Positions 719-25,372 of a stretch of 27,592 bases of DNA are shown here, piece after piece. Numbering within the stretch: position 1 is the stretch's first letter; each line of letters starts with the position of its first letter. A program made the position numbers and the translations under genes. Below the pieces are notes generated by a model. It worked only from the letters and a program-made list of their open reading frames with translations, had not been told where the DNA came from and made no database searches. This stretch comes from a virus (taxonomy: Duplodnaviria; Heunggongvirae; Uroviricota; Caudoviricetes): IMG/VR virus record IMGVR_UViG_2522572164_000008; one strand, written 5' to 3'.

Positions 719-1270
719 TTACGCTTCCTGCTCTTTCTTGATACGTTGCACCGTCTGTGTGCTGACACTGAAATCTTTTGCTACGCTCCGAATTGATCCA
801 CCATTCGCGAGAGCGGCAACAATTCCCGCTCGATCAATTGCTTTTCCATTACCACGTTTTGCTATACGTCCAGCGGCCTTAGCTGCGGCGATCCCCTCAC
901 GCTGCCGCTCAAGCATCATTTCACGTTCCATTTGTGCCACTGCTGCAAGCACTGTGAGCATCATATTCCCTGCGGGAGAGTTCTTCCCTGTCTTAAAGTC
1001 TTCTTTATGGAAATGCACAGACACGCCGCGCTCTGTTAATTGCTCAACCGTTGCCAGAAGGTCGGCTGTATTACGACAAAGGCGATCAATACTATGGACG
1101 TGTAACACGTCACCCTCCCGCACATAGTTCATCATTGCCTCAAACTGTGGGCGCTGAGTGTTCTTGCCTGACGCTTTATCTTCAAAGACTTTATCAAGAG
1201 TTACTCCAGCTAATTGACGGTCTGTGTTTTGTTGCACAGTCGATACCCTAATGTATCCAATATTAGCCAT
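719..1270 (-). CDS. Serine recombinase, resolvase/invertase family
   Basis: N-terminal GYIRVSTVQQNTDRQ catalytic-serine motif and C-terminal HTH (SIRSVAKDFSVSTQTVQRI), about 183 aa. Start taken as the second ATG (MANIGY), which has AAGGA 8 nt upstream; ORF-track start is 1276. Confidence 0.85.
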   Translation of the reverse strand: MANIGYIRVSTVQQNTDRQLAGVTLDKVFEDKASGKNTQRPQFEAMMNYVREGDVLHVHSIDRLCRNTADLLATVEQLTERGVSVHFHKEDFKTGKNSPAGNMMLTVLAAVAQMEREMMLERQREGIAAAKAAGRIAKRGNGKAIDRAGIVAALANGGSIRSVAKDFSVSTQTVQRIKKEQEA

Positions 1271-1835
1271 TTTCATTTTCCTTCTGTGTTGATTTGAGTG
1301 TAGTGATTATTGATCGTGTTGATTAGGTGTGTAAAGGACTTTTTTCACTACGAAATTCGAAGGTTTTTAGTGTGGTGATTTAGCCTGCTTTATCACTACA
1401 CGTCTTGCATGAGAATCATGTAGTTACATTTTGGTAAAATTAGCAAGCTATTAAATAGTGTGTTTATTTTGAAAAAATAATTTTTTGTTGCATTAAAGGA
1501 AACTTGTTCGACAAATAATAGATTGATTTTTAATCAACAATTTCTGATAGTGCTCTGTAAGCCGTATTACACAAGGCTTTGCGAAAGTGATGTAAAAGTG
1601 AAGAAAGCTAACATTGCACTTTTTAAGCTACTTTTCATTGGATTTTTACGTAGGAATTACACAGGGATTAATCATCAATTACATTGAATTTAAGCCTGTT
1701 TTAGATGTTTAATTTTGGTAGCAAGAAACACTTTTAGAAGATCATTGCACAGATGCTATGTGATGATTGGATGTAACGGTAGGTCACTGTGAGCTACCCC
1801 TATCAAGTCTGATACCCGATAAGTATAAATAACAC

Positions 1836-1934
1836 CTGGGAAATGAGTTCCGATCTATTTAGGAAATAACCGTGGAAGTGGTTTCCTACCTACCTAGGAA
1901 ATGAGTTCCTATCACCTAGGAAATGATTTCCGAC
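1836..1934. repeat. Three copies of a 13-bp dyad GGAAATGA(G/T)TTCC plus one split copy, next to a roughly 90% AT stretch (1935-2000)
   Basis: Copies read at 1836-1855, 1895-1913 and 1917-1934; split inverted half-sites at 1861-1889. Iteron-like or operator-like architecture. Confidence 0.6.
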
Positions 1935-2944
1935 AATACTATAATTAAACTACAATTAAACTATATAATATAATTCTTTTTTATCTTTATAAGAATAATT
2001 ATAGGGATACCCGTTAGGGAGTCTAACGACTATCCCTTAATCTATTGGCATTCGCCAGAACCTTGCACAAGTTAGAGTGTTAGTCGTTAGACTGCTTGTC
2101 ATAACACATAGTTTTTGTTTGTTGATGTTAGTTAGTAGATCTATGTTCGCTAATGCCGCTCACAACGAATATGTAATCTACTATGTGCAAATAGCCTACG
2201 GCTTGCGTAAGGCTAAATAGTCTTGCGCTGTGCGCTTCAATAGTTCCATTGATGAGGCTTACGCCAATCTAACGATCATCAATCTATTTAAGAGAAAATC
2301 TATTGTGCAATACTCTGACGAGTGCAATAACCTTGTGTGCTACGCGTTAGCGATGTTAGCACATAGACACAGACAACAACCAACAACAAACAAAAAAGAA
2401 AGAATGGTTTTAGTAGTTGAAGGTTAAATAAGTTTCTACCGCTTAAATCAAGCCGTAGGCGAGCTAAACGTATATAAGGCAGGGAAACCTTAGCGGTAAT
2501 AGATTAGCTCATTATAGAGCTTCTGAGGAGCTTTACAGGTATTTTATAAGGTGTCTGAAATTAGAGTTTATCTATCATCTCCTTTTCATATACCTAACAA
2601 ATACAAAATAAGCCCCTTAAATAAACCTCTGGCGAGCTAAACTGTCATTACATAAGGGAATGTATTGTTTTTATCAAAACCTCGTTAGAACGCGTTTTAG
2701 AGAATAAGGAAGAATAGCATCACACAGAAGAGCACGAATTGCTAAGCAAAATCATAACATACTGAAAAATGATCAATATTTTATGGGCGGGGTTGACAAA
2801 AGCCTTTAGTTATGGTAAAGTAATATTAGGGGCAGGAAAACATTCCTATCCTCTAAATAATTAAACCAATGCACCGCACTTTGAAGCCCAAGAGGCTTGC
2901 AAGGTGTCTTTTTCTTTTAACCAAATAGAATAGGAGGTTAATTA

Positions 2945-3127
2945 GTGAAGTATTTCACTTCTCAAGATGTAGTTGAAGCCTGGAAACGTGGTGAGATCAA
3001 CCGCTTTAGGGTAAGAATGAATAGGAACACAGCGCGACGCTGTGGTTATCCAGAGCGTGAAAAATGTTTTGACGATGCACTAAAAATTATTGATGAACTG
3101 CGTAAGGCAGGAGCAGAGAAAGAATAA
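2945..3127 (+). CDS. Hypothetical small protein (60 aa)
   Basis: GTG start with AGGAGG 7 nt upstream; first gene of a tightly packed same-strand array. Confidence 0.5.
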   Translation: MKYFTSQDVVEAWKRGEINRFRVRMNRNTARRCGYPEREKCFDDALKIIDELRKAGAEKE

Positions 3128-3150: not shown

Positions 3151-3339
3151 ATGAATATTAATTTTGATTCTGCAACTTATAACGCGTTGTTAAATCGTGC
3201 AAAGGCAGAAGGGAAATCAATTCCAAAACTTGTTAATGAATTACTAATTACAGTCCTTACAAAGGAGGAACTAAATGATCAAAAATATCAAAACAATTGC
3301 CGAAGCGAAAGCCAAATGTCTAAATCAGAAAGATGGTAA
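3151..3339 (+). CDS. Putative ribbon-helix-helix (CopG/Arc-like) DNA-binding protein
   Basis: N-terminal strand-helix-turn-helix pattern (INFDSATYNALLNRAKAEGKSIPKLVNELL); GGAGAAGGAG upstream. Family call by pattern only. Confidence 0.45.
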   Translation: MNINFDSATYNALLNRAKAEGKSIPKLVNELLITVLTKEELNDQKYQNNCRSESQMSKSERW

Positions 3340-4964: not shown

Positions 4965-5263
4965 TGGAAGAAGATATTAGCAATGCAATGGAACAACTTT
5001 TAGATCTGACTATCTCACTACAAACAAGAATAAATCAAGCCTATTCAGATTTATGCGATTACACGCTCTCTCAATGCGTTATTAGCTTAATGAAGGTGAA
5101 TGTAAGCCTTGACGATTTTATCTCTCTGGTGAGCGTATCAGAGGACGATGCAAAACAGTGTAATCAAATCATCACAGACATCGCCACCACGTTAAAGGTT
5201 GCAAGTGAAGAGATTCAGCAATTAGTAGATGATTTAGCAAAAAGTGCTATTTTCTCTAAATGA
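4964..5263 (+). CDS. Hypothetical protein (99 aa)
   Basis: RBS AAGGAGAA upstream; ATG overlaps the previous stop (TAATGG), suggesting translational coupling. Confidence 0.5.
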   Translation: MEEDISNAMEQLLDLTISLQTRINQAYSDLCDYTLSQCVISLMKVNVSLDDFISLVSVSEDDAKQCNQIITDIATTLKVASEEIQQLVDDLAKSAIFSK

Positions 5264-6253
5264 TAATGAAAATTATTTGCATTTATAATGATTTTGTTAT
5301 ATAATAATTTAGGGGTAGATAAAAAGATTTTAGTTGGTGTTAATCCTTCTACTGTCATAAATCCCTGCATATGGAAGGTGATAGCCTCAAAGGTTGAGTG
5401 GCATTAACCTCTAACAAATATTACCTTCCATCTCTCAAGAAGTTTTAGAATAATCATAACTCCCTCTTTGATTGTTGATTGTTGATTGTTTCTACGTTGT
5501 GTTGATGAATGTTGTTAGGCATTGTGCTTAATTTTGATAAAAGCGGGTAGGTGTTATCTCCTTGCCCTTCCCGCTCTTATTTTTCATCTATGCTTATCCT
5601 AAAGCTCCTTATTTTGTCAGAAAACATTAAAGAGCCTTACACTGATAGTTATATTTTATAACTATTTACTAACATCATTAAACTATTATTTAATGACAGA
5701 AGTTAGTAACAGAATAATCTATTAAGTTGTTGTCAAAAACAATCATCTGCATAGCGTTAGCCGCAAGCAGAGAGAGTTTAGCTAAGAATGGTGCAATAAA
5801 CTTTGGAAATATTGATAGCAAAACGGGTTTTATAGAATGCGGATCTATAAGCTTTGGTTGTAAAAACGATTTTCTGAAACGGTAGATTACTGTTGGTGTA
5901 GTTAATCATTATTAAAAATTTAATCCGTGAGTAGATTGGAATAGTGATTCCTTAAAATCTGACTGGTGCATCCACACCATGAAAGATAGCGGTTGGCCAC
6001 CGCGCCCCGAATAGATATTCCTGATTGATTCCGCATGTTTTCCTAAGAGCATGTTTTCAGGAGTATCTATTCACCCTTTAAGCATATCATCAAGTATATT
6101 TAAAAAGTGTATTTGCTGATATGTTTAATCCTCTTATAGTTTAACTTATCAATTATGTAATTGCCCGCACGTTAAAGCCCCTTTGCTGGTCAGAATTAAC
6201 CTCTTACGGCATTGGGGCTTTTTATTTGTCTGGCACTAACAGGAACATTATTT

Positions 6254-10915: not shown

Positions 10916-11820
10916 CTATAGCGTTGTTTTACGCCTTAAATTTGATTTTTTATTGATTGATAAGCCTTTCTCTATTTCAGGGTAGCGTAAAAGCTCAATA
11001 TATTTTTTAAGCTCTATTGGAGAAGCTGCATTTTTGCTATATGTGCGGAATGTTTCTGTATTGCCGCGTGTATGGCCCAGGAGAAGGGCGATCCTGTCTT
11101 CTGGAATTTGATTTCGATCAAGAAGCTGTGCTACTCCGTGTCTCAGAGAATGAAACACTTTCCTTTCTGTTCCCTTTTCCCCTAAAGCCTTTCGTTTAGC
11201 TCTTGTAAATCGTTGTGTATGCCACGTAGAGCGTTTACCGTCAGCACGTTCTGTAATGCTGGCGTGATAGAACAAAAAGCCATTGTGAGGCTTTTCACGC
11301 AGCGACAACACCAACGGAGTGATAAGGTTATGCACAGGCACAACACGTGCCGCAGCTTTCGTCTTTCCCTGTGTGATTTCAAAACACAGCACACCTTCGA
11401 TCTCTTTCACATCGTCTATTGTGAGACTTGCTATCTCATTGATCCGCATACCTGTATATAAACCGATAAGACACAAAGCCGTCATTTCTTTGTTTTCTGC
11501 TGAATTACCGGAAAATACTTGCAACACCTGCAATAGCTCTTTGTTAGAAAATGCCTCGTAGCTCTCTCTACTTTGTGCCACATCAAGCCTATGCCCTCGC
11601 CAGGGGGAGAGCGCCCTTTCTGGCGCATCGTGGTAACGTGATGAAGCTAATTCCCATAGCTGGGCCATTGGACTGATATAATTTGCAATTGATTGTTGTG
11701 AAAGAGTTTTTTGCATGTGTTCAATCCAGCCTGTAACAGTGGTGCGGCTTACATCTTGCAATGCAATATCAGGCTTTTTACGGTAGGAGAGAAACATCTC
11801 TACCGCTTTTCTTGCCTTAG
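10916..11820 (-). pseudogene. Tyrosine integrase, C-terminal catalytic fragment (separated from its N-terminus by IS5)
   Basis: Contains H-x-x-R (FHSLRHG), LLGH and a C-terminal Tyr (RTYSK) typical of tyrosine recombinases. The first 23 codons of the ORF-track protein are read from inside IS5. Confidence 0.8.
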
Positions 11821-13015
<1,195 letters not shown>

Positions 13016-13479
13016 TTAGCTAAAGTGGCTGGCTTCTTCTTCGTGCTGTTAATTGTCAGGTAGATTTCAAGAATTTTAAGCAATGACGGACACGAAGACG
13101 CTGTATCTTGCACTCTGGTAGCTGTTTTGGCGTATTTAGCCTTACTGCGTAACAGTTCCAGCGTGTTTTCTATTGTGCTGTTTACAGGGGCAACACTCTC
13201 CCGTAAGCAATGGTATTCATCTGCAATCTGATCACGCTTTCTACGTGCAACACGAAGATTACTTGTGTGTAGACTTCTGACAAACGTCCTTTTTCCTTCA
13301 AAAAAGGGCTGCATATACACAGGCAGCGTGATCCTTAAATAGTAGTTACCGTAAGAATCACAGATTAAGTATTGGTTAGGCTTGTATCTCATAAAATCTC
13401 CGGCTAAAGTGTCGGAGCGTTTGTAATGTGAAAATTGATTGTGACGCATAGAAAATGATGATTTTTCTATAAGATTCAA
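13016..13479 (-). pseudogene. Tyrosine integrase, N-terminal fragment (continues at 11820-10916 across IS5)
   Basis: N-terminal integrase-like segment (YYLRITLP...GKRTFVRSL). The ORF-track protein then reads through into IS5 (about 36 aa of IS-derived sequence). Frame arithmetic shows the two fragments are in frame once IS5 and one TTAG copy are removed. Confidence 0.8.
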
Positions 13480-13719: not shown

Positions 13720-14934
13720 GTGAAACTCAATGCCCGTCAAATAGACACTGCCAAGCCAAAAGAGAAGGCTTACAAGCTGGCTGATGGTGGTGGTCTGTAT
13801 CTCTTGGTAAAACCTAGTGGAGGAAAATATTGGCGCTTCAAGTATCGTGTAGCTGGTAAAGAGAAGCTGTTAGCACTAGGTGTGTATCCTGAAGTTACTT
13901 TGGCTGATGCTCGTGCAAAACGTGAAGAAGCTAAAAGGGGTATCGCTGGGGGTATCGATCCGATGGAAGCGAAACGAGAGGAAAAGATTGCCCGGGAAAC
14001 GCAGTTAAACAACACCTTCAAAGATATTGCCCTTGAGTGGCACAGCAGCAAATTAAAAAAATGGTCTGCTGGTTATGCTTCAGACATCCTCGAAGCCTTC
14101 AACAAAGATGTGTTCCCTTACATTGGCAAAAAACCAATCGCCGAAATCAAACCACTTGAACTGCTGAATGTGCTGCGGCGCATCGAGGGGCGCGGTGCTA
14201 CCGAAAAAGCCAAAAAAGTGAGGCAGCGATGCGGGGAAGTTTTCCGCTATGCAATTGTCACTGGACGTGCTGAGTATAACCCTGCACCGGATCTCACCAG
14301 CGCGATGCAAGGTCATGAATCTAATCATTATCCTTTCCTCACAGCCAAAGAATTACCTGATTTTTTCAAGGCATTGTCCAGTTACTCAGGAAGTGCATTG
14401 GTTGTTATGGCGGCTCGTCTACTGATTATCACCGGTTTGCGGACTGGCGAACTGCGCGGTGCATTATGGGATGAAATCGATCTCAACAAGGCTATCTGGG
14501 AGATACCTGCTTCACGGATGAAAATGCGTCGCCCTCATGTGGTGCCTTTGTCTAAGCAGGCTCTTTCGCTTATTGGGCAGATTAAAGAATTAACTGGCAA
14601 TTATCCGCTTATGTTTCCCGGCCGTAATGATCCAAGGAAAACAATGAGCGAGGCTAGCATAAACCAAGTATTTAAACGCATCGGCTATAACGGAAAGGTT
14701 ACTGGTCATGGATTCCGGCACACCATGAGCACCATTTTGCATGAGCAGGGCTATAACACCGCGTGGATAGAGACGCAGCTCGCACACGTCGATAAAAACT
14801 CAATTCGTGGCACATACAACCATGCGCAATATCTGGATGGACGGCGGGAAATGCTTCAGTGGTACGCCGATTATATGGATTCGCTCGAGCATGGCGGAAA
14901 TGTGGTGCATGGTGAGTTCGGAAAATGCGGGTGA
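13720..14934 (+). CDS. Tyrosine integrase, P4/CP4-57-like family (404 aa)
   Basis: GTG start with GGAGG 9 nt upstream; N-terminus ARQIDTAKPKEKAYKLADGGGLYLLVKPSGGKYWRFKYR typical of P4-type integrases; catalytic R...HGFRHT...Y region near the C-terminus. Confidence 0.9.
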   Translation: MKLNARQIDTAKPKEKAYKLADGGGLYLLVKPSGGKYWRFKYRVAGKEKLLALGVYPEVTLADARAKREEAKRGIAGGIDPMEAKREEKIARETQLNNTFKDIALEWHSSKLKKWSAGYASDILEAFNKDVFPYIGKKPIAEIKPLELLNVLRRIEGRGATEKAKKVRQRCGEVFRYAIVTGRAEYNPAPDLTSAMQGHESNHYPFLTAKELPDFFKALSSYSGSALVVMAARLLIITGLRTGELRGALWDEIDLNKAIWEIPASRMKMRRPHVVPLSKQALSLIGQIKELTGNYPLMFPGRNDPRKTMSEASINQVFKRIGYNGKVTGHGFRHTMSTILHEQGYNTAWIETQLAHVDKNSIRGTYNHAQYLDGRREMLQWYADYMDSLEHGGNVVHGEFGKCG

Positions 14935-15062
14935 CTGGTTGAGTATACAGTAGTAGACTTTGAGCGACGAAAGAAAAGGCTGTGTCTAGGGGCGCTCCCG
15001 AAAATCCGTACATCTCGACGGACTGGTACAGCCACTACAGTAGAGGACGCTGAGGTGTGCGT

Positions 15063-15860
15063 ATGATTGATATTCATGCCGAATTAAACGAATACAAAAA
15101 AGATTTTATTTCTTTACGTGAATTTCTTGAGGTCGTGCTTAAGGTCGCTGGTGATGATTATGATGTTTCAGATGTCATAACTTGGATACTCAGGAGAATA
15201 AGCGGAGAACATATCCGCCTGTACACAGTAAATGAATTTAAGCTGTTGGAATCTTTTTGTAACCCGTATCGGGATGAATTTGATTATGATGTTCTTTATA
15301 GAAATCTGAATGCGGTTCGGAAACGTGGTTGTTTACCTGGTGAGAGGGATGAAAATGGTTTTCTGGTGTCCGGTTATTGGGAAGATCCCGAATTTGAGAA
15401 CATTGGATTTATAAGGGGTGAAATTTTCGCAATTTTTCCCGATGTCCTTGACGCGTTAACGAAGCTGGAAGGCGCTAACTCTTCTGAAAATGACGAGGCA
15501 CAAGGACGCGATATTGAAAAGAAAGAGTTGCGTACAGAGGATGATTTATTATCCCAAATCGCAATGCTGGAAAAAGAAAACGCAGAGTTAAGGGCAAGGA
15601 TAGAGCAGTTAGAGCAAGAGCGCCCGATACACTTATATAAATACTGGGATAAAGACCCATTAGCTAAGGCTATTGAGATTAGAAACAGAGAGTGGGCCAA
15701 TTACGATCCAGAAAATGATTTTGCCACTAGGGGAAATCAAGAAGCGATAACCAGGGAGCTTAAGCAGTGGGGGGCAAGTAATGCTCTTGCAACGCTCATA
15801 GAGAGGACTGCCTGCCCTATTAACCGAGACAACAGCCAAAAGAACGCAAAGCCGGATTAA
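15063..15860 (+). CDS. Hypothetical protein with predicted coiled-coil segment (about 265 aa)
   Basis: ATG at 15063 with GAGGTG 6 nt upstream; coiled-coil-like EDDLLSQIAMLEKENAELRARIEQLEQE. Sits between int and alpA. Confidence 0.6.
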   Translation: MIDIHAELNEYKKDFISLREFLEVVLKVAGDDYDVSDVITWILRRISGEHIRLYTVNEFKLLESFCNPYRDEFDYDVLYRNLNAVRKRGCLPGERDENGFLVSGYWEDPEFENIGFIRGEIFAIFPDVLDALTKLEGANSSENDEAQGRDIEKKELRTEDDLLSQIAMLEKENAELRARIEQLEQERPIHLYKYWDKDPLAKAIEIRNREWANYDPENDFATRGNQEAITRELKQWGASNALATLIERTACPINRDNSQKNAKPD

Positions 15861-15875
15861 CGCACCATACCGCAT

Positions 15876-15985
15876 ACCCTGAGGGTGATTTACTGTTACC
15901 CTGAGGGTATTTTTTTATCTTCCCCGTCAATTTTACCATCACCCTTAGGGTTAATTTCCTTCCGGTAACCATTAGGCCTGAGGGT
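15876..15985. promoter_or_regulatory. Array of ACCCT-N-AGGGT palindromes upstream of alpA
   Basis: Perfect copies at 15876-15886 and 15898-15908, variant ACCCTTAGGGT at 15941-15951, partial at 15977-15985. Confidence 0.5.
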
Positions 15986-16054
15986 ATGAAAATATTCGTT
16001 ATTTCTGTGCCATGATTACCTCGTCAAATTGAGTAGACGTTATGAGGTAAATAT

Positions 16055-16252
16055 ATGTCAAATACGCTTATTCGTTTAACAGAAGTTCAGCGTAGAACTG
16101 GATATAGCAAGGCATGGATTTATCGCCTTATGGGGCAAGGTAAATTTCCTGCATCAGTTAAAATTGGCTCGCGAGCTATTGCTTTCGTTGAGAGTGAAAT
16201 TGACGAGTGGATTAATCAGCGTATTGCTGAATCACGCGGAACAGCTACCTGA
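16055..16252 (+). CDS. alpA: AlpA-family phage transcriptional regulator/excisionase-like HTH protein (65 aa)
   Basis: Sequence LIRLTEVQRRTGYSKAWIYRLMGQGKFPASVKIGSRAIAFVESEIDEWI matches the AlpA family pattern; RBS GAGGTAAATAT-ATG. Confidence 0.85.
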   Translation: MSNTLIRLTEVQRRTGYSKAWIYRLMGQGKFPASVKIGSRAIAFVESEIDEWINQRIAESRGTAT

Positions 16253-16330
16253 TTAAATGGCTACGGGGCCAGAAGCCCCCAGCTATCCACCAGCAAATAA
16301 AAGTAACTTAATTCGATAGCAGGAGTTTTT

Positions 16331-17131
16331 ATGAAACTGCGAAAAACGCCCGTACAGGGGCAGGGCTTCGTTCGGCCTGAAAACCAGAATCTGCAAAATT
16401 TCGGCGAAATTATCCCGGTTATTTCCGGCGTTATTGGCGGGCGTGAAACCAATATTGTTAGCGGCAGAGCGTTGCATAAGGCGTTAGGTGTAGGTCGCGT
16501 TTTCCGTTCGTGGATCAAGGGGCGCATTGAAGAATACGGCTTCACGGAAGGCGTGGATTATGAGGTTGTTGAATATTTGAGCCGACCCGATCCGGTGAGC
16601 GCAAAATCTCGCCAGCAAACAGCTCTTGAGTACATCATTACCGTGAACATGGCGAAAGAACTGGCGATGGTCGAACGCACCGAACAGGGGCGCGCCGTTC
16701 GTCAGTACTTCATCAAATGCGAGGAAGAGCTACACAAGGTTGCGCCTGTACGTTCCGCAGCGTTACGCCGGGAACTGAAAGCCCGTATCACAGTTGCCAG
16801 CTACTTTAAGCCAATGTGTGCCGCGCTGGAGGACTACCGGGCTGAACTGGGTAAAAACACTCTACAGCACCACTACACCACGGAAGCCAATATGCTGGCG
16901 CGTATCGTGCTGGGTGGCATGACTGCAAAACAGTGGGCGCAGGTGAACGGCATCACAGGCGAACCACGCGACCACATGAGCACGTTGCAGCTTGAGCACC
17001 TTTCTTACCTTGAGCAGAGCAATATCACGCTGATTGAGTTAGGCCAGGACTACCACCAGCGGAAGGCTGAATTAATTCGTCTTTCGCAGCGTTGGTTAGC
17101 CCGTCGCATGGAGGAAAACAGCCATGTGTAA
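16331..17131 (+). CDS. Phage antirepressor-like protein (266 aa)
   Basis: RBS AGGAG; N-terminal region resembles prophage antirepressor proteins as recalled. Family assignment tentative. Confidence 0.6.
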   Translation: MKLRKTPVQGQGFVRPENQNLQNFGEIIPVISGVIGGRETNIVSGRALHKALGVGRVFRSWIKGRIEEYGFTEGVDYEVVEYLSRPDPVSAKSRQQTALEYIITVNMAKELAMVERTEQGRAVRQYFIKCEEELHKVAPVRSAALRRELKARITVASYFKPMCAALEDYRAELGKNTLQHHYTTEANMLARIVLGGMTAKQWAQVNGITGEPRDHMSTLQLEHLSYLEQSNITLIELGQDYHQRKAELIRLSQRWLARRMEENSHV

Positions 17132-17590
17132 CGCTCTGACCGTTACAAAAAGAGAAAGCGCCCCGTTGCCGGAGCGCCTTTGTGAACGAATAGCCTACTG
17201 CGCCATATTGCTTACTGTCTACGAGGCAGATTATAGCGTTGTGGTCGCACAGAGTGAAGGCGCTGATCACCGTTACTACAGCACGCCAGAAATGCAGAAT
17301 ATTTTGCTGCAAAATGCCGTTGGCCACGCTGTCCGGAAAGCAAAAAATTTTGCTGGTGGCGCGACTGATGCGATTTTGTCAGGTCGCCAGGTGCTGATCA
17401 ATCTGATGTCTGATTTCGTTCTGGATAAAACAAAGGCGACCGCAGAGAGCCGCCAGTGGAAAAGCTACATACTTGAACGCATCACCAACAATGCCACATT
17501 TGCGGCTGGTGGGCAATGTGTCAGCTTTGCACCAATGACTCTAGGTTTAACTGAGGGTCATTATGGTGAATATGCTGGCTTGCTGGTGGG
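17124..17590 (+). other. Coding-like 5' part of a 1.57-kb stop-free frame; status unresolved, possibly a decayed or fused gene
   Basis: ATG at 17124 overlaps the upstream stop and has GGAGGA 9 nt upstream, but the frame has no stop until 18692 and runs antisense through a plausible minus-strand gene and a promoter region. The end coordinate is arbitrary. Confidence 0.3.
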
Positions 17591-17848
17591 CTATTCCTGC
17601 TCTTTAACATCGCCATGCCGCGATGTTTTCCAGGTATGCGACCCCATTTTTGTGCGCCTGTACTCTTTAAGGAATTTCTCAAGGATAAACGCACAGGGCG
17701 CGAATCTGTCTGACTCATGCTCGTACGCTATCTTTCTGCGCTGTCTTTTCCGTGCCGGTGATGGTGTATTGGTTGATTCTTTGTTGGTCATGGCGCTGCC
17801 CTGTAAAACGATGCACCGTAGTTCCTCACACCACGGCGCTGGTGATGG

Positions 17849-18154
17849 TTACTCCTGTTCTTTGGCCTTGCGCCGCTGGAGTTCTTCACGCGCGACGGTG
17901 ACGAGTTGCCCGATCTCCTCGGCTGCTTTGACACCGATTTTTTCCACCTGCGCCAGTGCATCGAGCGAAGAAACCAGGGGATTTTCTCCGCTTCCTTCTG
18001 CCTGGCGGCGGGCGATTTCACCGCGAACGGCTGTAATCACGAAAGCGGCTATTGTTTCCCCTTCCGTTTTCGAATTTTCCATTTCCTCGATTACATCATG
18101 GGGGAAGCGGATATTTTTCATTTGCGATCTGCTGTTGATGTTTCCTGTTGCCAT
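17849..18154 (-). CDS. Putative ribbon-helix-helix-type regulator with C-terminal coiled coil (101 aa)
   Basis: MKNIRFPHDVIEEMEN strand-helix pattern; divergent from the downstream plus-strand operon across a palindrome-rich region. No clear SD. Confidence 0.6.
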   Translation of the reverse strand: MATGNINSRSQMKNIRFPHDVIEEMENSKTEGETIAAFVITAVRGEIARRQAEGSGENPLVSSLDALAQVEKIGVKAAEEIGQLVTVAREELQRRKAKEQE

Positions 18155-18176
18155 CAGAATGTCCGGTTATTTTGAG

Positions 18177-18279
18177 GTGTGTACACATTACACCAAAAGG
18201 TGTGTTGATAAAACACTTGACACTGTAGCACACTTAAATCTAATCTGTATATACACTAATGATTGTGGTGTATATACAG
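18177..18279. promoter_or_regulatory. Divergent promoter/operator region with three palindromes
   Basis: Perfect 12-bp inverted repeat CTGTATATACAC (18245-18256) / GTGTATATACAG (18268-18279) with 11-bp spacer; TGTGTACACA (18177-18186); ACACCAAAAGGTGT (18190-18203); TTGACA at 18217-18222 with a TAATCT -10 candidate 18 bp downstream. Confidence 0.55.
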
Positions 18280-18346
18280 CAACGCCCCGCAGTGGTGGCA
18301 CACATGCAGGGCGTCTAACCAAACCGTTAAACGAGGTAACGATTAT

Positions 18347-18692
18347 GGCTGGAACACAGCATACCCAAACTCACCCTAAATTTATATACACCTTCCTGGC
18401 GGTGCACCGTGATTGCATAGCTGACGGTAAAAACACTGTACACGTAGCCGCTGATACGCTGGTTGATGCCTGCGAGATGCTCAATGACATGGGCTATATC
18501 TCGGCAACATGGAAAGGGCGCGAAGAAAACACGCTGTTTATTCAGAAATGCGAGAACAATTTTATCTGGCGTTTTATCGCCCTGAGCACAGCACAACCGC
18601 GCGTAATTCACATCGAGGCCACCAGCGAACAGGAAGCGCGTCAGCAATCTCCTGATGGCTGCGTGATGGTATTCGCTGCCCGTATTCGCTAG
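18347..18692 (+). CDS. Hypothetical protein (115 aa)
   Basis: ATG at 18347 with GAGGTAACGATT upstream; this is the 3' part of the long stop-free frame and is probably the real gene. Confidence 0.5.
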
Positions 18693-18702
18693 GAGGTGCA
18701 CC

Positions 18703-19068
18703 ATGCATAACCTGTCAATTTATGACCTTAACAGCATTCAGTTTCGTGAGAAATTCACCGAGCAGCTACTGGTTAACGTGGAGAATGGACGCGTGGTAAG
18801 TAATTATCACCTGCCGGATGGTGCAATTGCCGGAAGCGTTGAAGCATTGCTGGAACTGGCAGAACGTGCGCGACTTATTAAGCCGTTAACGAACCATCAC
18901 GATGATGATCTGCATTTTACCGGACGCATGGTGAGTCACTACGAAAACGGCGTCGAGGTATCCCGCGAACGGCTGCGTGATGATTGCTGTTTCGGAACAC
19001 TGCCGGAATTTAGCGAACTGCTGACCCGTTGCGATTACCGGATCATTCAGGGGGGAAGTCATGGGTAA
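18703..19068 (+). CDS. Hypothetical protein (121 aa)
   Basis: Strong RBS TAGGAGGTGCACC-ATG. Confidence 0.6.
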   Translation: MHNLSIYDLNSIQFREKFTEQLLVNVENGRVVSNYHLPDGAIAGSVEALLELAERARLIKPLTNHHDDDLHFTGRMVSHYENGVEVSRERLRDDCCFGTLPEFSELLTRCDYRIIQGGSHG

Positions 19069-19261
19069 TCAGCCAGCAACAATGACAATTACCCTGAATG
19101 TGCCAGATGATTTCACCGGGCGCGTACTGGTTTACCTGGATAAAGGGAAAGTGAAATCACAATGCCGACTGCGAAATAATGAAATTGTAAGTACGGTAGA
19201 AGGCTTTTCTGAACTATGTATTCGTGCAGGAATAAAACCGGAACTGCTGACAGGAAAATAA
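19061..19261 (+). CDS. Hypothetical small protein (66 aa)
   Basis: RBS GGGGGGAAGTC-ATG; start overlaps the upstream gene end. Confidence 0.5.
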   Translation: MGNQPATMTITLNVPDDFTGRVLVYLDKGKVKSQCRLRNNEIVSTVEGFSELCIRAGIKPELLTGK

Positions 19262-19265
19262 AACC

Positions 19266-19556
19266 ATGAAAAAGAAAAATTCTGGCTTTACTGCCAGCGG
19301 CCTCTCTCGGTCTGCAATTCGCTCTGGCGATATTTACCGCGACACCAGACGTGGGGGACGAGTGGTTATTCGTCACGTTACGCCAGGCAATATCACCTAC
19401 CGCCGTGAGGCTTACGAATATGACTGCGTAATGCCGCGCCGTCAGTTTGAGCGTGATTTTATTCTGGTGGAAAACAAACAATTGGCGGTGGCAAGACGTG
19501 CAGCCTCGAATATTAAAAAAATCCGGGCAATGTTGGTTGCGGGAGGTAAGAAGTGA
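19266..19556 (+). CDS. Hypothetical small basic protein (96 aa), possibly of a conserved island-associated family
   Basis: Motif GDIYRDTRRGGRVVIRHV...YEYDCVMPRRQFERDF resembles small proteins recalled from P4-integrase islands; stop overlaps the start of the next gene. Confidence 0.5.
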   Translation: MKKKNSGFTASGLSRSAIRSGDIYRDTRRGGRVVIRHVTPGNITYRREAYEYDCVMPRRQFERDFILVENKQLAVARRAASNIKKIRAMLVAGGKK

Positions 19557-21685
19557 AAAACGCACCGAATTTAAAATATCAGCCAAAGGATAAATTCACC
19601 GAGGTAATCATTTTTGCCGGGACGGATGCTTACGCCCATGCTCAACACTGGATTGAAAGCGAAGGACGAAAACACGGCGATAACGTGCCACCTGTTTACC
19701 TGGGGCCAACGCAACTGGCAGATCTGGCTAATATCCGCATTATCGACGATGAGCGCCGCTTTGCGCGTGTTTATATCGCGGGGGAGATAGAGCCAATCCA
19801 GATCAATGCTATCGCTGAAAAGCTGGCGCTGGCTGGCGTACAGGATGCGAAATTATACAAAGGCATCACCGACCGGGAGCCGGAGAACTGGCGCGACTAC
19901 CTGCAACGGATCCGCGAACAGGCAGAGCGCGGGGAAACCATTCCTGAAGGAATCGGAATAGCTGGTGGATCACCCGGTAAAACAGACCCCATGAAACCGC
20001 ATATTACCGAAAAAGACGGGGCGCTCTGGTATATCGAGCCAATCCCCAACACCAGGGCAGAGGAGATGAATTATAAAGAAACCTGGCTGAGTGACCGGAT
20101 GCGCACGGCAGGTATTGGTAACGACGGAAGGGAAGCGTATCTGATCATTGAAATGATCCCGGAAGGGACACAAAAAATTATTTACGAAGCGATGCCGCGC
20201 AATGAAATCGGTATGCCCGCAGGATGGGCGCGATTACGTGGGCGGGGAGTTGCAATCACTACCAGTGCCCATTTACTGAACAAACTGGCGGAATACCTGC
20301 AACGTCATGGAGATCGCACGGTGTGGGAGGTCACATCAACAGCAGGTTGGCATTGTGGAGCCTATGTTATGCCTGATGGCGAGGTGATTGGTGTGCCTGA
20401 CCGTCCCGTAGCATTCTGCGGCGGATCTGCCGCCATCAAAGGCTATATTGTCAGGGGCACGGTGCATGAATGGCGAAATAATGTTGCTTCTCTGATGCGT
20501 GGCAATCACTCAATGATGCTTGGGGTGCTGGTCGGGCTGGCAGCCCCGCTAAATTCCCTTGTGGGTGGTAGTTGTTTTGGTATTCATCTTTTCGCGCAGT
20601 CGTCAGCGGGGAAAACCACGACTGTGGAGGCCGCCACCAGCCTTTATGGCGACCCTGAAATGCTTAAACTCTCGTGGGATGCCACCCGGCACGGGCTGAC
20701 AGTGGAAGCAGCTGCACGTAATGACGGTTTTATCCCTATTGATGAAATTGGTCAGGGAGGAAGGGTTAATGACATTGCGCAATCCGCCTACAGCCTGTTT
20801 AACGGTGTGGGCAGGATTCAGGGGCGCAAGGACGGCGGTAATCGTGCGGTAATGCGCTGGAAAATAGCGGCACTAAGCACCGGAGAAGAAGATTTTGAAA
20901 CCTTCCTGTTAAAAGGGGGAATTGCCCCAAAGGCAGGGCAACTGGTGCGACTGCTAAGCATTCCCTTTACCGATACAACGGTGTTTAACGGTTATGACGA
21001 TGGTGATCAACATGCCAGGGCCATAAAGCGACTTTCATCAAATTATTGTGGCGCTGCGGGACGTGAGTGGGTGCGCTGGTTATCCGCTCACAAGGAGCTG
21101 GCTATCAACACCACTTCAGATAAAGAAAATGCCTGGCTGGGAAATCTGCCTGAAAATGCCTCGTCACAGGTAAGGCGAGTGGCATCGCGATTCGCCATGC
21201 TGGATGCAGCCGGAGAGCTTGCCACCGCAATTACTGGCTGGACAGCTGAAGAATGCCGGGAAGCAACGCAACGGGCTTTTGATGACTGGCTACAGGATTT
21301 CGGGCTGGAAAACCGGGAAAAATATCAGGTCATCAGTCGCGCCCGTGACTTTATTCAGCGCCATGCCCTGAGTCGTTTTCAGCCTTATACCTACGGGAAA
21401 AGCAATGGGGATATGGATAACCACTATGCATCCCGTATAAGCAATCTTGCAGGCTATCTTGTCAGCGGTAAGCGTGAGGATGGAAAACCCGAATATCACA
21501 TTATCCCGTCAGTGTTTGATAGCGAAATTTTATGCGGTATATCCAGGAACTTTGGGTGTCAGGCGCTGGAAGAAGCCGGAATGCTGGTTTGTGCAGAACC
21601 TGGTCGCTGGACATCGAAAACAGTGAAGATTAACGGAACACAGCAGCGATTTATCGTGCTGATTGATCAGGCAGAAGACGAATAG
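19553..21685 (+). CDS. Replication protein, primase/helicase-like P-loop NTPase (710 aa)
   Basis: GTG start with GGAGGT upstream; Walker A GxxxxGKT (FAQSSAGKTTTVE); large N-terminal domain; followed directly by an iteron array. Confidence 0.75.
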   Translation: MKNAPNLKYQPKDKFTEVIIFAGTDAYAHAQHWIESEGRKHGDNVPPVYLGPTQLADLANIRIIDDERRFARVYIAGEIEPIQINAIAEKLALAGVQDAKLYKGITDREPENWRDYLQRIREQAERGETIPEGIGIAGGSPGKTDPMKPHITEKDGALWYIEPIPNTRAEEMNYKETWLSDRMRTAGIGNDGREAYLIIEMIPEGTQKIIYEAMPRNEIGMPAGWARLRGRGVAITTSAHLLNKLAEYLQRHGDRTVWEVTSTAGWHCGAYVMPDGEVIGVPDRPVAFCGGSAAIKGYIVRGTVHEWRNNVASLMRGNHSMMLGVLVGLAAPLNSLVGGSCFGIHLFAQSSAGKTTTVEAATSLYGDPEMLKLSWDATRHGLTVEAAARNDGFIPIDEIGQGGRVNDIAQSAYSLFNGVGRIQGRKDGGNRAVMRWKIAALSTGEEDFETFLLKGGIAPKAGQLVRLLSIPFTDTTVFNGYDDGDQHARAIKRLSSNYCGAAGREWVRWLSAHKELAINTTSDKENAWLGNLPENASSQVRRVASRFAMLDAAGELATAITGWTAEECREATQRAFDDWLQDFGLENREKYQVISRARDFIQRHALSRFQPYTYGKSNGDMDNHYASRISNLAGYLVSGKREDGKPEYHIIPSVFDSEILCGISRNFGCQALEEAGMLVCAEPGRWTSKTVKINGTQQRFIVLIDQAEDE

Positions 21686-21717
21686 CACAACCTACGCTCG
21701 CAGAGGGTCAAAAATCG

Positions 21718-21990
21718 CGGGATATGCGGGATATCGGGATATGGAAATATATTGCATAAATATCAGTTATTTATGTGTTGTTGTCGTATCCCGCTGTATC
21801 CCGCCGTATCCCGGTATTTAGGTTTACGAGTGGTTGTAAAACAAACAAAATAACCGTATCCCGGAATGTATCCCGCAATATCTTATTGATGCATAAGCAA
21901 AAAAAAACTTACCGGGATATGGCGGGATATGAAAAATCACATAACGCTATGAAATAAATGGGTTTTTTTTGTTTATATCCCGATATCCCG
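21718..21990. repeat. Iteron array: 12 copies of the octamer CGGGATAT (or its complement) in alternating blocks, with A/T runs; candidate replication origin
   Basis: Forward copies at 21718, 21727, 21735, 21913, 21923; reverse copies at 21787, 21797, 21807, 21857, 21868, 21975, 21983; A- and T-runs at 21899-21907, 21963-21970 and 22005-22013. Confidence 0.7.
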
Positions 21991-22143
21991 GTAAAAAATG
22001 TTTTTTTACGCCTTATAGAGTACAGAAAAAAAGGTTGTTCAAATTTTGTATTACGATTGACTACTGTCAGCCATCCCACCCGGAAAAGGCATAAAAGCTG
22101 ACAGGTAACTGACAATGAGACTGTTTTATTTTTACGTGCCGAT

Positions 22144-22701
22144 ATGACGGCAACAATGATGGGGCAGAGCATGACAAAACTGACCATTAACAGAAAACCG
22201 AAAGGTATTTACGGCACGCCGCAGAAAACGACGCAGGCGGCACAGAAGCAGGATAAAACCACATCGGCACATAAAGTGATGCCCGGTAACCAGAAAGCGC
22301 AGCAGAAGCCCACAGGGGCGACACCGTGGCGGCATATGACCAAACGCCAGCGCAAAAACCGCAGGCGCGTTAACCGTCTCACTGAGTTGTGGCCTGAATT
22401 ATTCAGCCGGGAAGCACCGAAGCCACTTAAGGTGGGGATATTCGACGACCTGATGCAGGATATCGCCGTCAGGGGGCTGGCATTCGGTCCAGGGGCATTA
22501 CGTGCGACGCTGGCATCTTATGCGCAGTGTCCGCGCTATTACCGCGCCTTAATGGCTGGTGGGGTGCGCTATGACCTGAAAGGCCAGCCGTGCGGCGAGG
22601 TGACACCACAGAAACAGAACGAGGCAGAAATGCGGCTGATGGCGCTGAATGAGAAGCGCAAACGCCAGCGCCGGGCAGCCAGGGAGAAAACAGGCGCATG
22701 A
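22144..22701 (+). CDS. FinO/ProQ-domain RNA-binding protein-like (185 aa)
   Basis: Core PLKVGIFDDL...LRATLASYAQCPRYYRALMAGGVRYDLKGQPCGEV follows the ProQ/FinO domain pattern as recalled; basic N-terminal tail. Start codon uncertain. Confidence 0.65.
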   Translation: MTATMMGQSMTKLTINRKPKGIYGTPQKTTQAAQKQDKTTSAHKVMPGNQKAQQKPTGATPWRHMTKRQRKNRRRVNRLTELWPELFSREAPKPLKVGIFDDLMQDIAVRGLAFGPGALRATLASYAQCPRYYRALMAGGVRYDLKGQPCGEVTPQKQNEAEMRLMALNEKRKRQRRAAREKTGA

Positions 22702-22985
22702 TTCACGACAGCAAAGCGGAAGCACTGGAAGCGCGTGGACTGTACCGGAGAGCGGCGGCGCGGTGGGCTGAGGTCATCATGCTGGCGAATGATGACAAGG
22801 CACGGGAACAGGCGGCAAAACGTCGCGCGGAATGTATCCACAAGGCAGCACGCCCACCAGCAAGGCAGGATAATTTCGGGGAGATGCGCGAAACCATCAG
22901 CCGGGCACATGCCGGGATGGGATTACATCAGCCCAATGGTGAGGCATTCAGGAAATACCAAAAAAAGAACAATTGTAGTCAGTAA
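22698..22985 (+). CDS. PerC-like transcriptional activator-like small protein (95 aa)
   Basis: N-terminus AEALEARGLYRRAAARWAEV resembles PerC/Pch-family activators as recalled; ATG overlaps the upstream stop (ATGA). Confidence 0.5.
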   Translation: MIHDSKAEALEARGLYRRAAARWAEVIMLANDDKAREQAAKRRAECIHKAARPPARQDNFGEMRETISRAHAGMGLHQPNGEAFRKYQKKNNCSQ

Positions 22986-23119
22986 CAGAGGATGGGATTC
23001 TCTTGGTTTTTTGTTGATGCTTTCTGAGGAAATCTACTACGTTGCTGAGCAGATGAATATTCAATTGCATCTGGGTTCCTGATAAGATTAATCTGAATAT
23101 TTTCATTTGGAATAGGGAT

Positions 23120-23923
23120 ATGAATAAAACTTTAATTGCAACATTAGTCGGTATAGTAATGTTAACCGGATGTGGGCCAGAAGAGTTAACTCCAGAACAG
23201 AAACAGGAAGTAGCTGCTCTTAAAGCTGAACTGTCGCAAACGGAAGGTGAAATATCAGCAGCTAAGGAAGTTGACCAGCAGTTTTCTGGTGGGTTGATAA
23301 AAAATCTGACAACAGCAAGACTGGAAATATTAGGAACTAATAAAGCGCTTTTGGAACAGCGTATTAATGCTATTGAATCAGGTGCCAAAATTGATGTTGT
23401 TGTATCTGGAGTAAAACCTGATCCTGAGCTTGCGGCTTCAATTAAAACTGAAATTGACAGCTTAGATGCAAAAATCAACGAAGCCAAAGCTGATGCTCGT
23501 CAGTATAGTGGTGGTCTGATAAAGGTACTAAAATTATCTACTGTTGCCACTGAAGAGCAGACCATGGCAATGTTGCAGCAAAAGTACCTCACAGCCAAGT
23601 ATGGCCTCGCTGAAGTTAAGCTGGCATCAGTACAAGCTAATGACGCAAAAAACAGTACTGAAACGGAAGTAACAGCCAAAAATTCCCAAGAGCAACTTCC
23701 TTTACTCCCGCCAGCGGATGGTCCGTTTGGCTTAGAAGCCGGTCTTACACAGAAAAACATCGAAGATATGATCGGTGCTAAGCTCAAGCCACTACCAGAC
23801 AGTGTGAATCTGTATACTTCTGATAAATTACCGAAGCAAAACGCAGATTTTGAAATGTATGGTTTGCTGATCTCCCCGAAAGCTGGTTTATGTCAAATAC
23901 GGGCTTTAGGAAAAAAATATTGA
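23120..23923 (+). CDS. Lipoprotein (267 aa) with internal sequence repeats
   Basis: Signal peptide plus lipobox (MLTGC); internal repeat QQFSGGLIKNL / RQYSGGLIKVL; AT-rich relative to neighbours; RBS AGGGAT. Confidence 0.7.
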   Translation: MNKTLIATLVGIVMLTGCGPEELTPEQKQEVAALKAELSQTEGEISAAKEVDQQFSGGLIKNLTTARLEILGTNKALLEQRINAIESGAKIDVVVSGVKPDPELAASIKTEIDSLDAKINEAKADARQYSGGLIKVLKLSTVATEEQTMAMLQQKYLTAKYGLAEVKLASVQANDAKNSTETEVTAKNSQEQLPLLPPADGPFGLEAGLTQKNIEDMIGAKLKPLPDSVNLYTSDKLPKQNADFEMYGLLISPKAGLCQIRALGKKY

Positions 23924-23939
23924 TACTGATAGCTATGGA

Positions 23940-24263
23940 TTGGCTCTTAAATCCAAGTTTGAAGAATTGAGTAATTCTTTAAGTTCTCTGTATGGAAAGG
24001 CTGATACTACAGACTTTTTGCTGGCTGGTTCAATTTGGAAAGATCCTCAGGACTGGATGAGGGGGCTAAACAAAAAAGAACGCTTCTTATCTGCCACATG
24101 GAAGGGAACAAAAGAAATACCATTAAAAAACAATATTGATACTATATCTATTGAGGCCAGAGCGAACAATTCCACTCAGGGATATGTCTATCTGCAGTAC
24201 TCATTTACAAATGACGAAATTTGTCAGGCAGAAATTGAAGGGGCGAAAAAAAGTTCCCTTTAA
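23940..24263 (+). CDS. Hypothetical protein (about 107 aa, start uncertain)
   Basis: Open frame right after the lipoprotein gene; the first codon in the track is a non-ATG start; followed by a clear terminator. Confidence 0.35.
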   Translation: MALKSKFEELSNSLSSLYGKADTTDFLLAGSIWKDPQDWMRGLNKKERFLSATWKGTKEIPLKNNIDTISIEARANNSTQGYVYLQYSFTNDEICQAEIEGAKKSSL

Positions 24264-24275
24264 ACAATCCGTGCA

Positions 24276-24300
24276 AAGCCCCTTAGTAAGGGGCTTTTAT
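24276..24300 (+). terminator. Rho-independent terminator
   Basis: AAGCCCC-TTAGTAA-GGGGCTT stem-loop followed by TTTTAT. Confidence 0.6.
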
Positions 24301-24327
24301 ATATTAATGTTCAACGTGGGGGATTAG

Positions 24328-24651
24328 ATGAAAGATAATCTAGCAAAACTAATTGAAAATACTTTAAAAGATATTCTATTAGCTAATGCTGCTCTAACAT
24401 TCATTTTTGCAATACCAATGGCTATTATCAGTAGGCATGGGATGGGCATCACAATCTGGTTTATAACTGTGCTCATTGCACCTGCTCTGTGTGCAGTAGG
24501 TGCATGGCTTGTATCTCGAACATCCGGCCATGCTGAGGAGTTCTTTCATCGTCGGTGGGCTAAGCGAATTTATGTTTTTTATACTCTTGCGGCTGCCGAG
24601 TTTTTGCTTGTGTACTCAATCGCGCAAATAATGAAAAATCTGATGAAATAA
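24328..24651 (+). CDS. Small membrane protein (107 aa, two to three predicted TM helices)
   Basis: Hydrophobic segments AALTFIFAIPMAII and ITIWFITVLIAPALCAVGAWLV; RBS GGGGGATTAG-ATG. Confidence 0.6.
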   Translation: MKDNLAKLIENTLKDILLANAALTFIFAIPMAIISRHGMGITIWFITVLIAPALCAVGAWLVSRTSGHAEEFFHRRWAKRIYVFYTLAAAEFLLVYSIAQIMKNLMK

Positions 24652-24840
24652 TTAACAAGTTATTATCATGGAGCTTGTGGCTGTTAACCTGCAGTGAGGC
24701 GACAATCGTGTATTTATAAAAACTTCCCCTTTTCACTCCCCGCAGCTTCTTCTGCTATTGCCTTTATGTTTGCATGCACCAACATCTGCCATACCTTTGC
24801 AGAAAAATCAGAGCATTCAGTGCCGAAGGTTGGTTTATTG

Positions 24841-25366: not shown

Positions 25367-25372
25367 ATCAGT

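Follow-up and report, generated by a model that had tools for sequence, protein, structure and literature searches.

A probable iteron-type replication origin, with an exchangeable specificity module, in a tRNA-integrated island of Escherichia coli

The window of DNA analysed here (the whole 27,592 nucleotides of IMG/VR record IMGVR_UViG_2522572164_000008) comes from an Escherichia coli chromosome and contains, between a serine recombinase gene and the first gene of an operon, a 1.7-kb stretch at 1277-2944 that is identical to the O104:H4 outbreak lineage; the question it raises is what such a stretch is for. The first-pass annotation, made from the letters of the window, described it as free of open reading frames (ORFs), and this holds, as we find only two short mechanical ORFs (54 and 65 aa) and RefSeq annotates no gene in the identical O104:H4 sequence. 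The same annotation likened the repeats and AT-rich DNA near its centre to an origin or a partition/operator region. Our answer is that 1834-2002 is very likely the iteron-type replication origin of a ~13-kb tRNA-integrated island, laid out like the origin of phage lambda, with the product of the third operon gene, the winged-helix protein ORF3, as its cognate initiator. Comparison strongly supports this choice among the earlier suggestions: the layout of repeats followed by an AT-rich tract recurs in 35 of 35 related loci, and in PHROG the ORF3 proteins match initiators only.

The three 13-bp dyads and the split copy that had been noticed are real. The core dyad GGAAATGAGTTCC lies at 1839-1851 and 1897-1909 and a variant, GGAAATGATTTCC, at 1919-1931, and the split copy consists of a degenerate fourth copy (ACCGTGGAAGTGGTTTCC, 1869-1886) plus a half-site (AGGAAATAACC, 1861-1871). 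With up to two mismatches allowed, the core dyad is matched six times in the window, where 0.65 matches are expected and none of 100 shuffles reaches six. The 13-bp dyads, GGAAATGA(G/T)TTCC, are the cores of longer direct repeats, the true unit being 18 bp, ACCT(A/G)GGAAATGA(G/T)TTCC, with starts at 1834, 1892 and 1914 (0.00 expected). We refer to these repeats as A-type iterons. Immediately upstream stand two single dyad repeats of other, non-cognate types, both missed in the first pass (Table 1). One is a B-type copy, of a unit that forms 22-bp tandem arrays of 2-5 copies in other loci (numbered here with an L: L004, L029, L032-L035, L038-L040); the other is a C-type copy, CCCTATCAAGTCTGATACC, of a unit that forms a four-copy array in Citrobacter L010, where one copy is identical to that of the window. 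Judged from their sequences, these lone copies are probably remnants of cassette exchange. On the other side of the array, the 65-bp tract that had been put at roughly 90% AT is confirmed, at 89.2% AT over 1935-1999; it is the most AT-rich 65-nt stretch of all 27,592 bases, with 0.02% of stretches as rich.

What argues most for an origin is the comparison with related islands. Thirty-five loci were informative, drawn from complete E. coli genomes, from IMG/VR contigs, from other genera and, in one instance, from a plasmid; the p60 alignment of E. coli sequences alone was used for the locus scan. All 35 have, in the same place, 2-5 dyad-symmetric repeats and then an AT-rich tract on the operon side. 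The 60 nt after the last cognate iteron are 68-90% AT (mean 84%), against 61% upstream, and the spacings within cognate arrays are 22-23, 32-33, 43-44 or 54-55 bp, which are whole helical turns. By the sequence of the repeat itself, eight types without relation to one another can be told apart: A (GGAAATGAGTTCC), B (GGTAGGTCACTGTGAGCTA), C (CCCTATCAAGATTGATACC), D (GGTGTCAAAATGGCACC), E (ACATCAAAATGATGT), F (ATACACGGGAAAAACCCG), G (GTAACG-4 nt-GTTACA) and J (CCCTAACAGAATTCTGTTA). Within IMG/VR, pairs of A-type iterons are confined to this island family.

The repeat type adjoining the AT tract pairs one-to-one with the sequence cluster formed by the first ~120 residues of ORF3, in 15 distinct module combinations and without exception. 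Identity between these N-terminal domains is 86-100% within a type, at most 27% between E. coli-type domains, and 33-42% among types D, E and F. Where complete modules are stacked (L003, L034, L035), it is the operon-nearest one that matches ORF3. The suggestion that the winged-helix protein is the binder of the repeats is thus strongly supported by co-variation across the 35 loci. The small ribbon-helix-helix (RHH)-like ORF2 was considered as a binder and rejected, as its types cross the repeat types (type 1 with B, G and J; type 3 with B, D and J); ORF2 type 2 is found only with A repeats, and that ORF overlaps the A-type ORF3 start by 65 nt. Nor does the recombinase track the repeat type, being 99-100% identical between the window (A) and L001 (G).

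Array and N-domain also move together between otherwise different surroundings. The C-terminal half of ORF3 comes mainly in two types, and two backbones follow downstream of the AT tract, T1 with a palindrome and T2 without; A, B, G and J are each found with both C-domain types and both backbones (T1/C1 and T2/C2). Between L001 and the window both flanks and most proteins are 92-100% identical, and yet L001 carries G repeats where the window carries A, and its ORF3 N-domain is another one. Unswapped DNA separates the array from the N-domain, which lies ~1.3 kb away, so the two have been exchanged as separate pieces, and their joint replacement across that unswapped DNA argues for a functional pairing and not for simple linkage. 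From these comparisons, the iteron cassette together with the ORF3 N-domain makes up a specificity module, which passes from one island backbone to another. The first-pass annotation had expected functional repeats to be conserved in related elements; their letters do change, but the architecture and the match to the protein are conserved, and replacement of the sequence with retention of both is the signature of a specificity module. Among the features that define the lambda-ori class of origin, the window has at least three phased dyad-symmetric direct repeats (four A-type copies), an AT-rich tract beside the iterons, which keeps to the same side in every locus, and a DNA-binding domain matched to the repeats by co-variation in eight types; a further one, the placing of the origin inside the initiator gene, is not seen, as the array is non-coding and lies 1.3 kb upstream of ORF3.

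The ORF3 protein has an N-terminal winged helix (~aa 30-120), a disordered acidic linker (aa 129-160), a helical C-domain and the tail YDSLPF; its AlphaFold model shows a confident winged-helix domain (predicted local distance difference test score, pLDDT, 85-93) and a small helical C-domain. All eight ORF3 types have an N-terminal winged helix (Pfam HTH_36 or DUF6945) and match only PHROG families of replication initiation proteins, O-like initiators or DnaD-like loaders (E 1e-4 to 8e-10), of which phrog_391, phrog_678 and phrog_345 are common to ORF3 types and lambda O; in Pfam and PHROGs no terminase or repressor family was matched by any of the eight. ORF3 has no Pfam match to Phage_rep_O, alignment of the ORF3 family with lambda O by hhalign gave a probability of 0.2%, which is not significant, and the fold is a generic winged helix, closest to regulators of the MarR, ArsR and CRP types. 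Because the fold is generic and the comparison with lambda O not significant, homology supports the assignment as initiator weakly; the architecture supports it more strongly. Tails of the forms YDS[L/I]PF, DFDIPF and FDPIPF are common to unrelated C-domains in the ORF3 proteins of the window and 31 related loci. They resemble the tip of SSB, the E. coli protein that binds single-stranded DNA. This tip, DDDIPF, binds DnaG primase and chi (PMC5872125, PMC3632105) and is also named as binding PriA; the resemblance is a lead for replisome recruitment, not a result. A perfect dyad, GGAAATCAATTCC, with two departures from the A-type core, lies at 3212-3224 inside ORF2, ~50 nt upstream of the ORF3 start; its presence is at chance level (0.65 such matches per window), and it could be an autoregulatory site. 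In Citrobacter/Raoultella L008 (6038-7522) and L016 (6422-7891) the ORF3 slot is occupied by a ~490-aa DEAD/ResIII helicase-like protein of superfamily 2 (SF2), and no clear iteron array was found in either locus; these may carry a different replication module, and a helicase-like protein in this position fits a replication slot.

We infer the following order of events. ORF3 dimers would bind the four dyad-symmetric A-type iterons via the N-terminal winged helix and, because the sites are spaced in whole helical turns, the bound proteins would lie on one face of the DNA. The resulting complex would melt the adjoining 70-bp, 89% AT tract, and the C-domain of ORF3, with its SSB-tip-like tail, would recruit host or phage replication proteins to the opened DNA.

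Evidence of a different kind comes from virulent phages. A search for ORF3 homologues returned a 332-aa protein of phage muut, and four virulent Stephanstirmvirinae phages (146-151 kb) were found to encode chimeras of two island-type DNA-binding domains, or heads, and an endonuclease domain, with heads 69-100% identical to island proteins (Table 1). The proteins P0132 (muut), P0135 and P0137 (the latter two J+A) have their heads joined by an ORF3-type linker, with an endonuclease-type C-domain after them. The C-terminal domain of the chimeras matches phrog_681 ‘endonuclease’ (E 2e-18) and Pfam MUG113/T5orf172 (the MUG113 match scoring 22.5 bits against a cut-off of 22.3). The B-type domain is without a match in the phage collection. 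Sequence common to the island and muut is limited to 261 nt (93.5% identical); when the origin region was compared by blastn with the same collection, chance AT-rich matches alone came up, and iterons of every type are missing from the whole muut genome, which, with ~0.1 A-type sites expected there by chance, signifies that there is no array and does not signify depletion.

A precedent is known from Vibrio cholerae, where the Odn protein of phage ICP1 has an N-domain 42% identical to the DNA-binding domain of RepA, the initiator of the PLE (an element resembling the phage-inducible chromosomal islands), fused to T5orf172; Odn cleaves the PLE origin, requires the iterons to do so, and has been proposed to drive the diversification of PLE replicons (PMC8263062). 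By analogy, the chimeras suggest that the phages target island DNA, that the target is essential to the island, and that it is this origin which the Stephanstirmvirinae proteins attack or cut; if they do so, this would explain the diversified specificity of the origin. We tentatively go further, to a proposal that we rate a little short of an even chance: that there is an arms race in E. coli, undescribed in the papers searched, between interchangeable iteron/initiator modules of the islands and two-headed, origin-directed nucleases of the phages, whose captured heads (A+C, A+G and A+J) would have been joined to a nuclease of the GIY-YIG type. In such a contest the ‘fossil’ repeats upstream of the array, and the B type with no phage copy, would be traces of escape by cassette switching. 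Neither the island family nor the phage chimeras were found described in the open-access papers searched, and the same holds, as far as those papers go, for the protein family, the position of the origin, the eight-fold series of specificities and the two-headed design of the chimeras.

Downstream of the AT tract, the nested palindrome reported earlier is real and is one base longer than had been drawn, ending at 2037 and not 2036; the inverted recurrence of its inner arm is also real, and lies at 2084-2093, one base from the position first given (2083-2092). The palindrome, AGGGATACCCGTTAGGGAGTCTAACGACTATCCCT, folds with an energy of -10.3 kcal/mol (z = -4.1; 0 of 200 shuffles fold equally well), and it is its inner right arm, GTCTAACGAC (2021-2030), that is repeated inverted. 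L018 has a perfect version (z = -7.8), and from L017 it is cleanly missing. The T2 backbone is without it, the equivalent DNA in L004 folding no better than shuffles (z = -0.07), and T3 backbones, which belong to other genera, have unrelated hairpins in its position; the inverted arm copy at 2076-2093 is deleted in L003, L007 and L029, and so is not conserved. Since it is found with T1 only, and is lost or replaced by unrelated hairpins in other backbones, the palindrome is, on this comparison, an accessory feature confined to backbone type T1.

The island that houses the array looks like a phage satellite. The window begins ~605 bp inside it, and it is inserted at the tRNA-Thr gene thrW, where 20 bp of the tRNA 3′ end, in direct repeat, mark its two borders; it measures 12.96 kb in strain 2011C-3493; related islands of ~12.2 kb are found at glyU. 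The non-coding region is matched in 734 of 5426 complete E. coli genomes, and the gene order recurs in seven other enterobacterial genera (Citrobacter, Buttiauxella, Kosakonia, Phytobacter, Kluyvera, Scandinavium and Raoultella). That order begins with variable cargo (in the window the serine recombinase, 719-1276), 1.7-2.7 kb of non-coding DNA and a promoter; it continues with a 60-aa gene, the small ORF2, the variable ORF3, small genes and a second non-coding gap; and it closes with capsid-like (Pfam Phage_cap_E in relatives), tape-measure-like and Dit-like genes and a tyrosine integrase adjoining attR. No AlpA, Stl-like or Pri-Rep genes were found among the island proteins, and the six island proteins scanned against NCBIfam, ORF3 among them, gave no match. 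Rfam gave no RNA family for the region, either with the whole window searched at the gathering threshold or with 1200-3000 searched by E-value, and no tRNA is present. The integrase of the window (10916-13479) is split by an IS5-like insertion with its transposase at 11889-12869, and is intact in 2011C-3493.

The operon has a sigma-70-type promoter, ~860 bp downstream of the iterons, whose TTGACA is kept in 16 of 16 aligned E. coli-type loci, and the terminator-like leader hairpin after it is conserved in L003 and L004 with changes that keep the stem. This layout of promoter and then terminator resembles lambda pR′/tR′, and because of its likeness to a leader terminator the operon may be switched on by antitermination.

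Table 1. Positions of features in and around the array (window coordinates) and of the phage chimera genes (accession coordinates).
Feature	Position	Strand	Remarks
Single non-cognate B-type dyad repeat	1778-1796	+	GGTAGGTCACTGTGAGCTA
Single non-cognate C-type dyad repeat	1798-1816	+	CCCTATCAAGTCTGATACC
A-type iteron 1, cognate	1834-1851	+	ACCTGGGAAATGAGTTCC; dyad core GGAAATGAGTTCC
Half-site and degenerate A-type iteron 2	1861-1886	+	AGGAAATAACC and ACCGTGGAAGTGGTTTCC; arrangement also in L041
A-type iteron 3	1892-1909	+	ACCTAGGAAATGAGTTCC
A-type iteron 4	1914-1931	+	ACCTAGGAAATGATTTCC; 22 bp after iteron 3
AT-rich tract, putative DNA-unwinding element	1932-2002		equivalent tract in 35/35 loci
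Imperfect palindrome, 35 bp	2003-2037		AGGGATACCCGTTAGGGAGTCTAACGACTATCCCT; accessory feature of T1 backbone
Inverted copy of palindrome right arm	2076-2093		pairs with 2020-2037 (18 nt, 89%)
Sigma-70-type operon promoter, conserved	2793-2821	+	TTGACA, 17 nt, TG-TAAAGT
Leader hairpin then U-run, terminator-like	2876-2918	+	-16.2 kcal/mol; between promoter and first gene
ORF3, putative cognate initiator, 222 aa	3275-3943	+	Pfam HTH_36, PHROG, AlphaFold model, co-variation
muut chimera (muut_154)	MN850573.1, 81258-82256		head 1 C-type, 69% over 114 aa to L010 ORF3; head 2 A-type, 89% to window aa 30-122
inny chimera	MN850601.1, ~119797-120549		head 1 G-type, 92% over 128 aa; head 2 A-type
Mt1B1_P17 chimera	MT496970.1, ~20722-21351		head 1 J-type, 100% over 92 aa; head 2 A-type
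BI-EHEC chimera	OL505078.1, ~130450-131058		head 1 J-type, 93.5% over 92 aa; head 2 A-type

Several observations weigh against an origin. No DnaA box, with up to one mismatch, occurs in 1277-2944, and among the island proteins Pfam and PHROG recognise no helicase, primase or loader. As an essential origin part the palindrome must be rejected as a general feature, as it is not conserved across backbones. Co-variation proves that protein and site are paired and not what the pairing does; and the failure of 200,000 shuffles to reproduce the perfect match of repeat and N-domain even once is an illustration and not a probability, because the loci are related and physically linked and their independence is overstated. 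A nuclease directed against any other essential site would, moreover, give the same phage evidence. Among replicons, a plasmid iteron replicon of the Rep_3 kind (RepA-pi-TrfA) was considered and rejected: there is no Rep_3 match, the model has one winged helix and a helical C-domain, and no DnaA box is present.

Could the same pairing of protein and site serve packaging instead? The array would then be a packaging recognition site, and ORF3 a small-terminase-like adaptor holding the repeats with its N-domain and the large terminase of a helper phage with its C-domain. In the same way lambda Nu1 binds the R sites of cosB. ORF3 is a two-domain protein, with N- and C-domains that can be swapped, and the repeated sites adjoin a bendable AT tract. 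The island, which encodes capsid-like and tail-like proteins and no terminase, needs a packaging route, and a phage nuclease against a packaging site would hurt it equally. We nevertheless regard packaging as very unlikely, since none of the eight ORF3 types matches a terminase family (the matches being to replication initiators only), and since ORF3 belongs to the promoter-proximal module, which ~3 kb and one non-coding gap separate from the capsid gene; no lambda cosN-like sequence was found, and a set of eight diversified specificities is typical of replicons.

Very unlikely, too, is the reading of the array as an operator, in which ORF3 would repress or activate either a promoter in or near the array (a minus-strand site running from 2025 to 1998) or the distant operon. 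Its generic winged-helix fold, with regulators as nearest relatives, would suit such a role; RefSeq calls some homologues ‘transcriptional regulator’; the promoter-like site lies within the palindrome and is directed into the AT tract; and the weak A-like dyad GGAAATCAATTCC is just upstream of the ORF3 start. Yet the minus-strand -35 is lost in most T1 relatives, which read AGTCTTCGAC, and promoter-like sites are fewer than shuffling would lead one to expect (4 against 6.5). The only conserved strong promoter is the operon promoter, at a distance of ~860 bp from the array, which argues against a classical operator as the first-pass annotation had it; four to five phased sites followed by an AT tract are the layout of an origin, and the PHROG matches are to initiators only. 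As for a res site of the adjacent serine recombinase, or a partition centromere, both also raised by the first-pass annotation, the chance is next to negligible: the region does lie near the recombinase gene and its repeats are dyad-symmetric, but comparison of the loci directly contradicts this reading. A-type repeats stand beside a tyrosine recombinase in L003 and L005, no recombinase is annotated there in L004, and nearly the same serine recombinase accompanies G repeats in L001. A centromere is opposed by the lack of any Par-type gene (ParA, ParB, ParM or ParR-like) among the island ORFs in Pfam, and by the chromosomal integration of the element. An iteron-type origin with ORF3 as its initiator is therefore the reading that we carry forward.

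Other features of the window and its relatives deserve record. In the conserved non-coding half of the 1.7-kb stretch, a ~30-nt unit (CCGCTTAAATCAA...GGCGAGCTAAAC) occurs twice, at 2439-2469 and 2613-2642, 174 bp apart. The most widely conserved non-coding block, 1526-1670, has repeated ATTACACA(A/G)GG motifs, and matches many further E. coli genomes, Shiga toxin-producing E. coli (STEC) included, without the rest of the region. The second ORF-poor gap of the island (5263-6253, ~1 kb), ahead of the capsid-gene block, has the stretches that rank second and third in the window for AT content (around 5248 and 5645) and closes with a strong hairpin and U-run (6174-6232, z = -3.5) just ahead of the next gene; this gap may serve as a packaging region or as the leader of a late operon. 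A second, P4-like satellite follows in tandem at 13720-27592, with its integrase at 13720-14934, an int-alpA RNA at 14979-15046 (Rfam RF02996, 44.2 bits) and a 710-aa ORF at 19553-21685 that RefSeq labels, in the matching O104:H4 locus, as a DUF927-domain protein. L001, the G-type island copy, lies on a 166-kb IncF plasmid of avian pathogenic E. coli (NZ_CP126938.1, 25181-58171) and is riddled with IS3 insertions, one of them in the non-coding region downstream of the origin.

The reading of the array as an origin proposes a function for the most conspicuous part of a 1.7-kb unannotated stretch, and for a winged-helix protein labelled ‘hypothetical’; the island to which both belong is present in about one in seven complete E. 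coli genomes, the O104:H4 outbreak lineage included. The eight matched pairs of domain and site form a directly testable table, and could be reused as orthogonal replicons. An initiator with an SSB-tip-like tail, possibly recruiting primase, chi or PriA, is a mechanistic idea of its own. Because coliphages that grow on K-12 encode the chimeras, a conflict of satellite and phage of the PLE/Odn type becomes testable in E. coli; if the arms race that we suggest is true, the PLE/ICP1 Odn principle would have a second case, independent of the first and more elaborate, in a model organism.

Of the known systems, lambda is the closest in layout. In the lambda record the origin shows four dyad iterons of 18 bp (starts at 39034, 39054, 39078 and 39101), followed by an AT-rich tract and a palindrome; the window thus shares with it four dyad iterons at ~20-24 bp spacing, an AT-rich tract and a palindrome, in the same order. 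In lambda O, too, specificity is set by an N-terminal DNA-binding domain, while interaction falls to a separate C-terminal one, and in lambdoid phages the iterons and the O N-domain co-vary. There are also differences: the lambda origin lies inside the O gene, whereas that of the island is non-coding, upstream of the promoter as well as of the initiator gene; no homologue of lambda P was found in the island; and the C-domain of ORF3, with its SSB-like tail, is unrelated to that of O.

The islands of the Staphylococcus aureus pathogenicity island (SaPI) and phage-inducible chromosomal island (PICI) kind are 12-15 kb long and integrated at att sites or tRNA genes, and have an origin of repeats and AT-rich DNA, with an island-encoded initiator of matched specificity. 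The island described here is of the same kind in its integration, its size, its origin of short repeats and AT-rich DNA, and its matched initiator. In SaPIs, however, Rep is a helicase paired with a primase and the origin is just 3′ of rep, whereas the putative island initiator is a small winged-helix protein with no ATPase, and an SF2 helicase is found only in the L008/L016 subfamily.

In logic, the nearest relative is the PLE of V. cholerae, which is also a satellite-type island with non-coding iterons, and in which initiator and origin are also swapped as a module irrespective of the backbone (PMC8263062), as A, B, G and J are here. There too, a nuclease of the T5orf172 type is fused to an initiator-like DNA-binding domain in a protein of a virulent phage (PMC8263062), and cleavage by the chimeras described here is suggested by that analogy. 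The two cases differ in that the PLE initiator is of the RepA_N family, whereas ORF3 is HTH_36/DUF6945 with no RepA_N match in Pfam; in host and phage family; and in the phage proteins, which here have two different heads, 69-100% identical to island domains, against the single figure of 42% between Odn and RepA. The PLE has two replicon types, against at least eight predicted specificities here. The probable iteron origin of the E. coli island is, then, of a familiar kind: that of lambda in its layout, and that of the PLE replicon in its logic.

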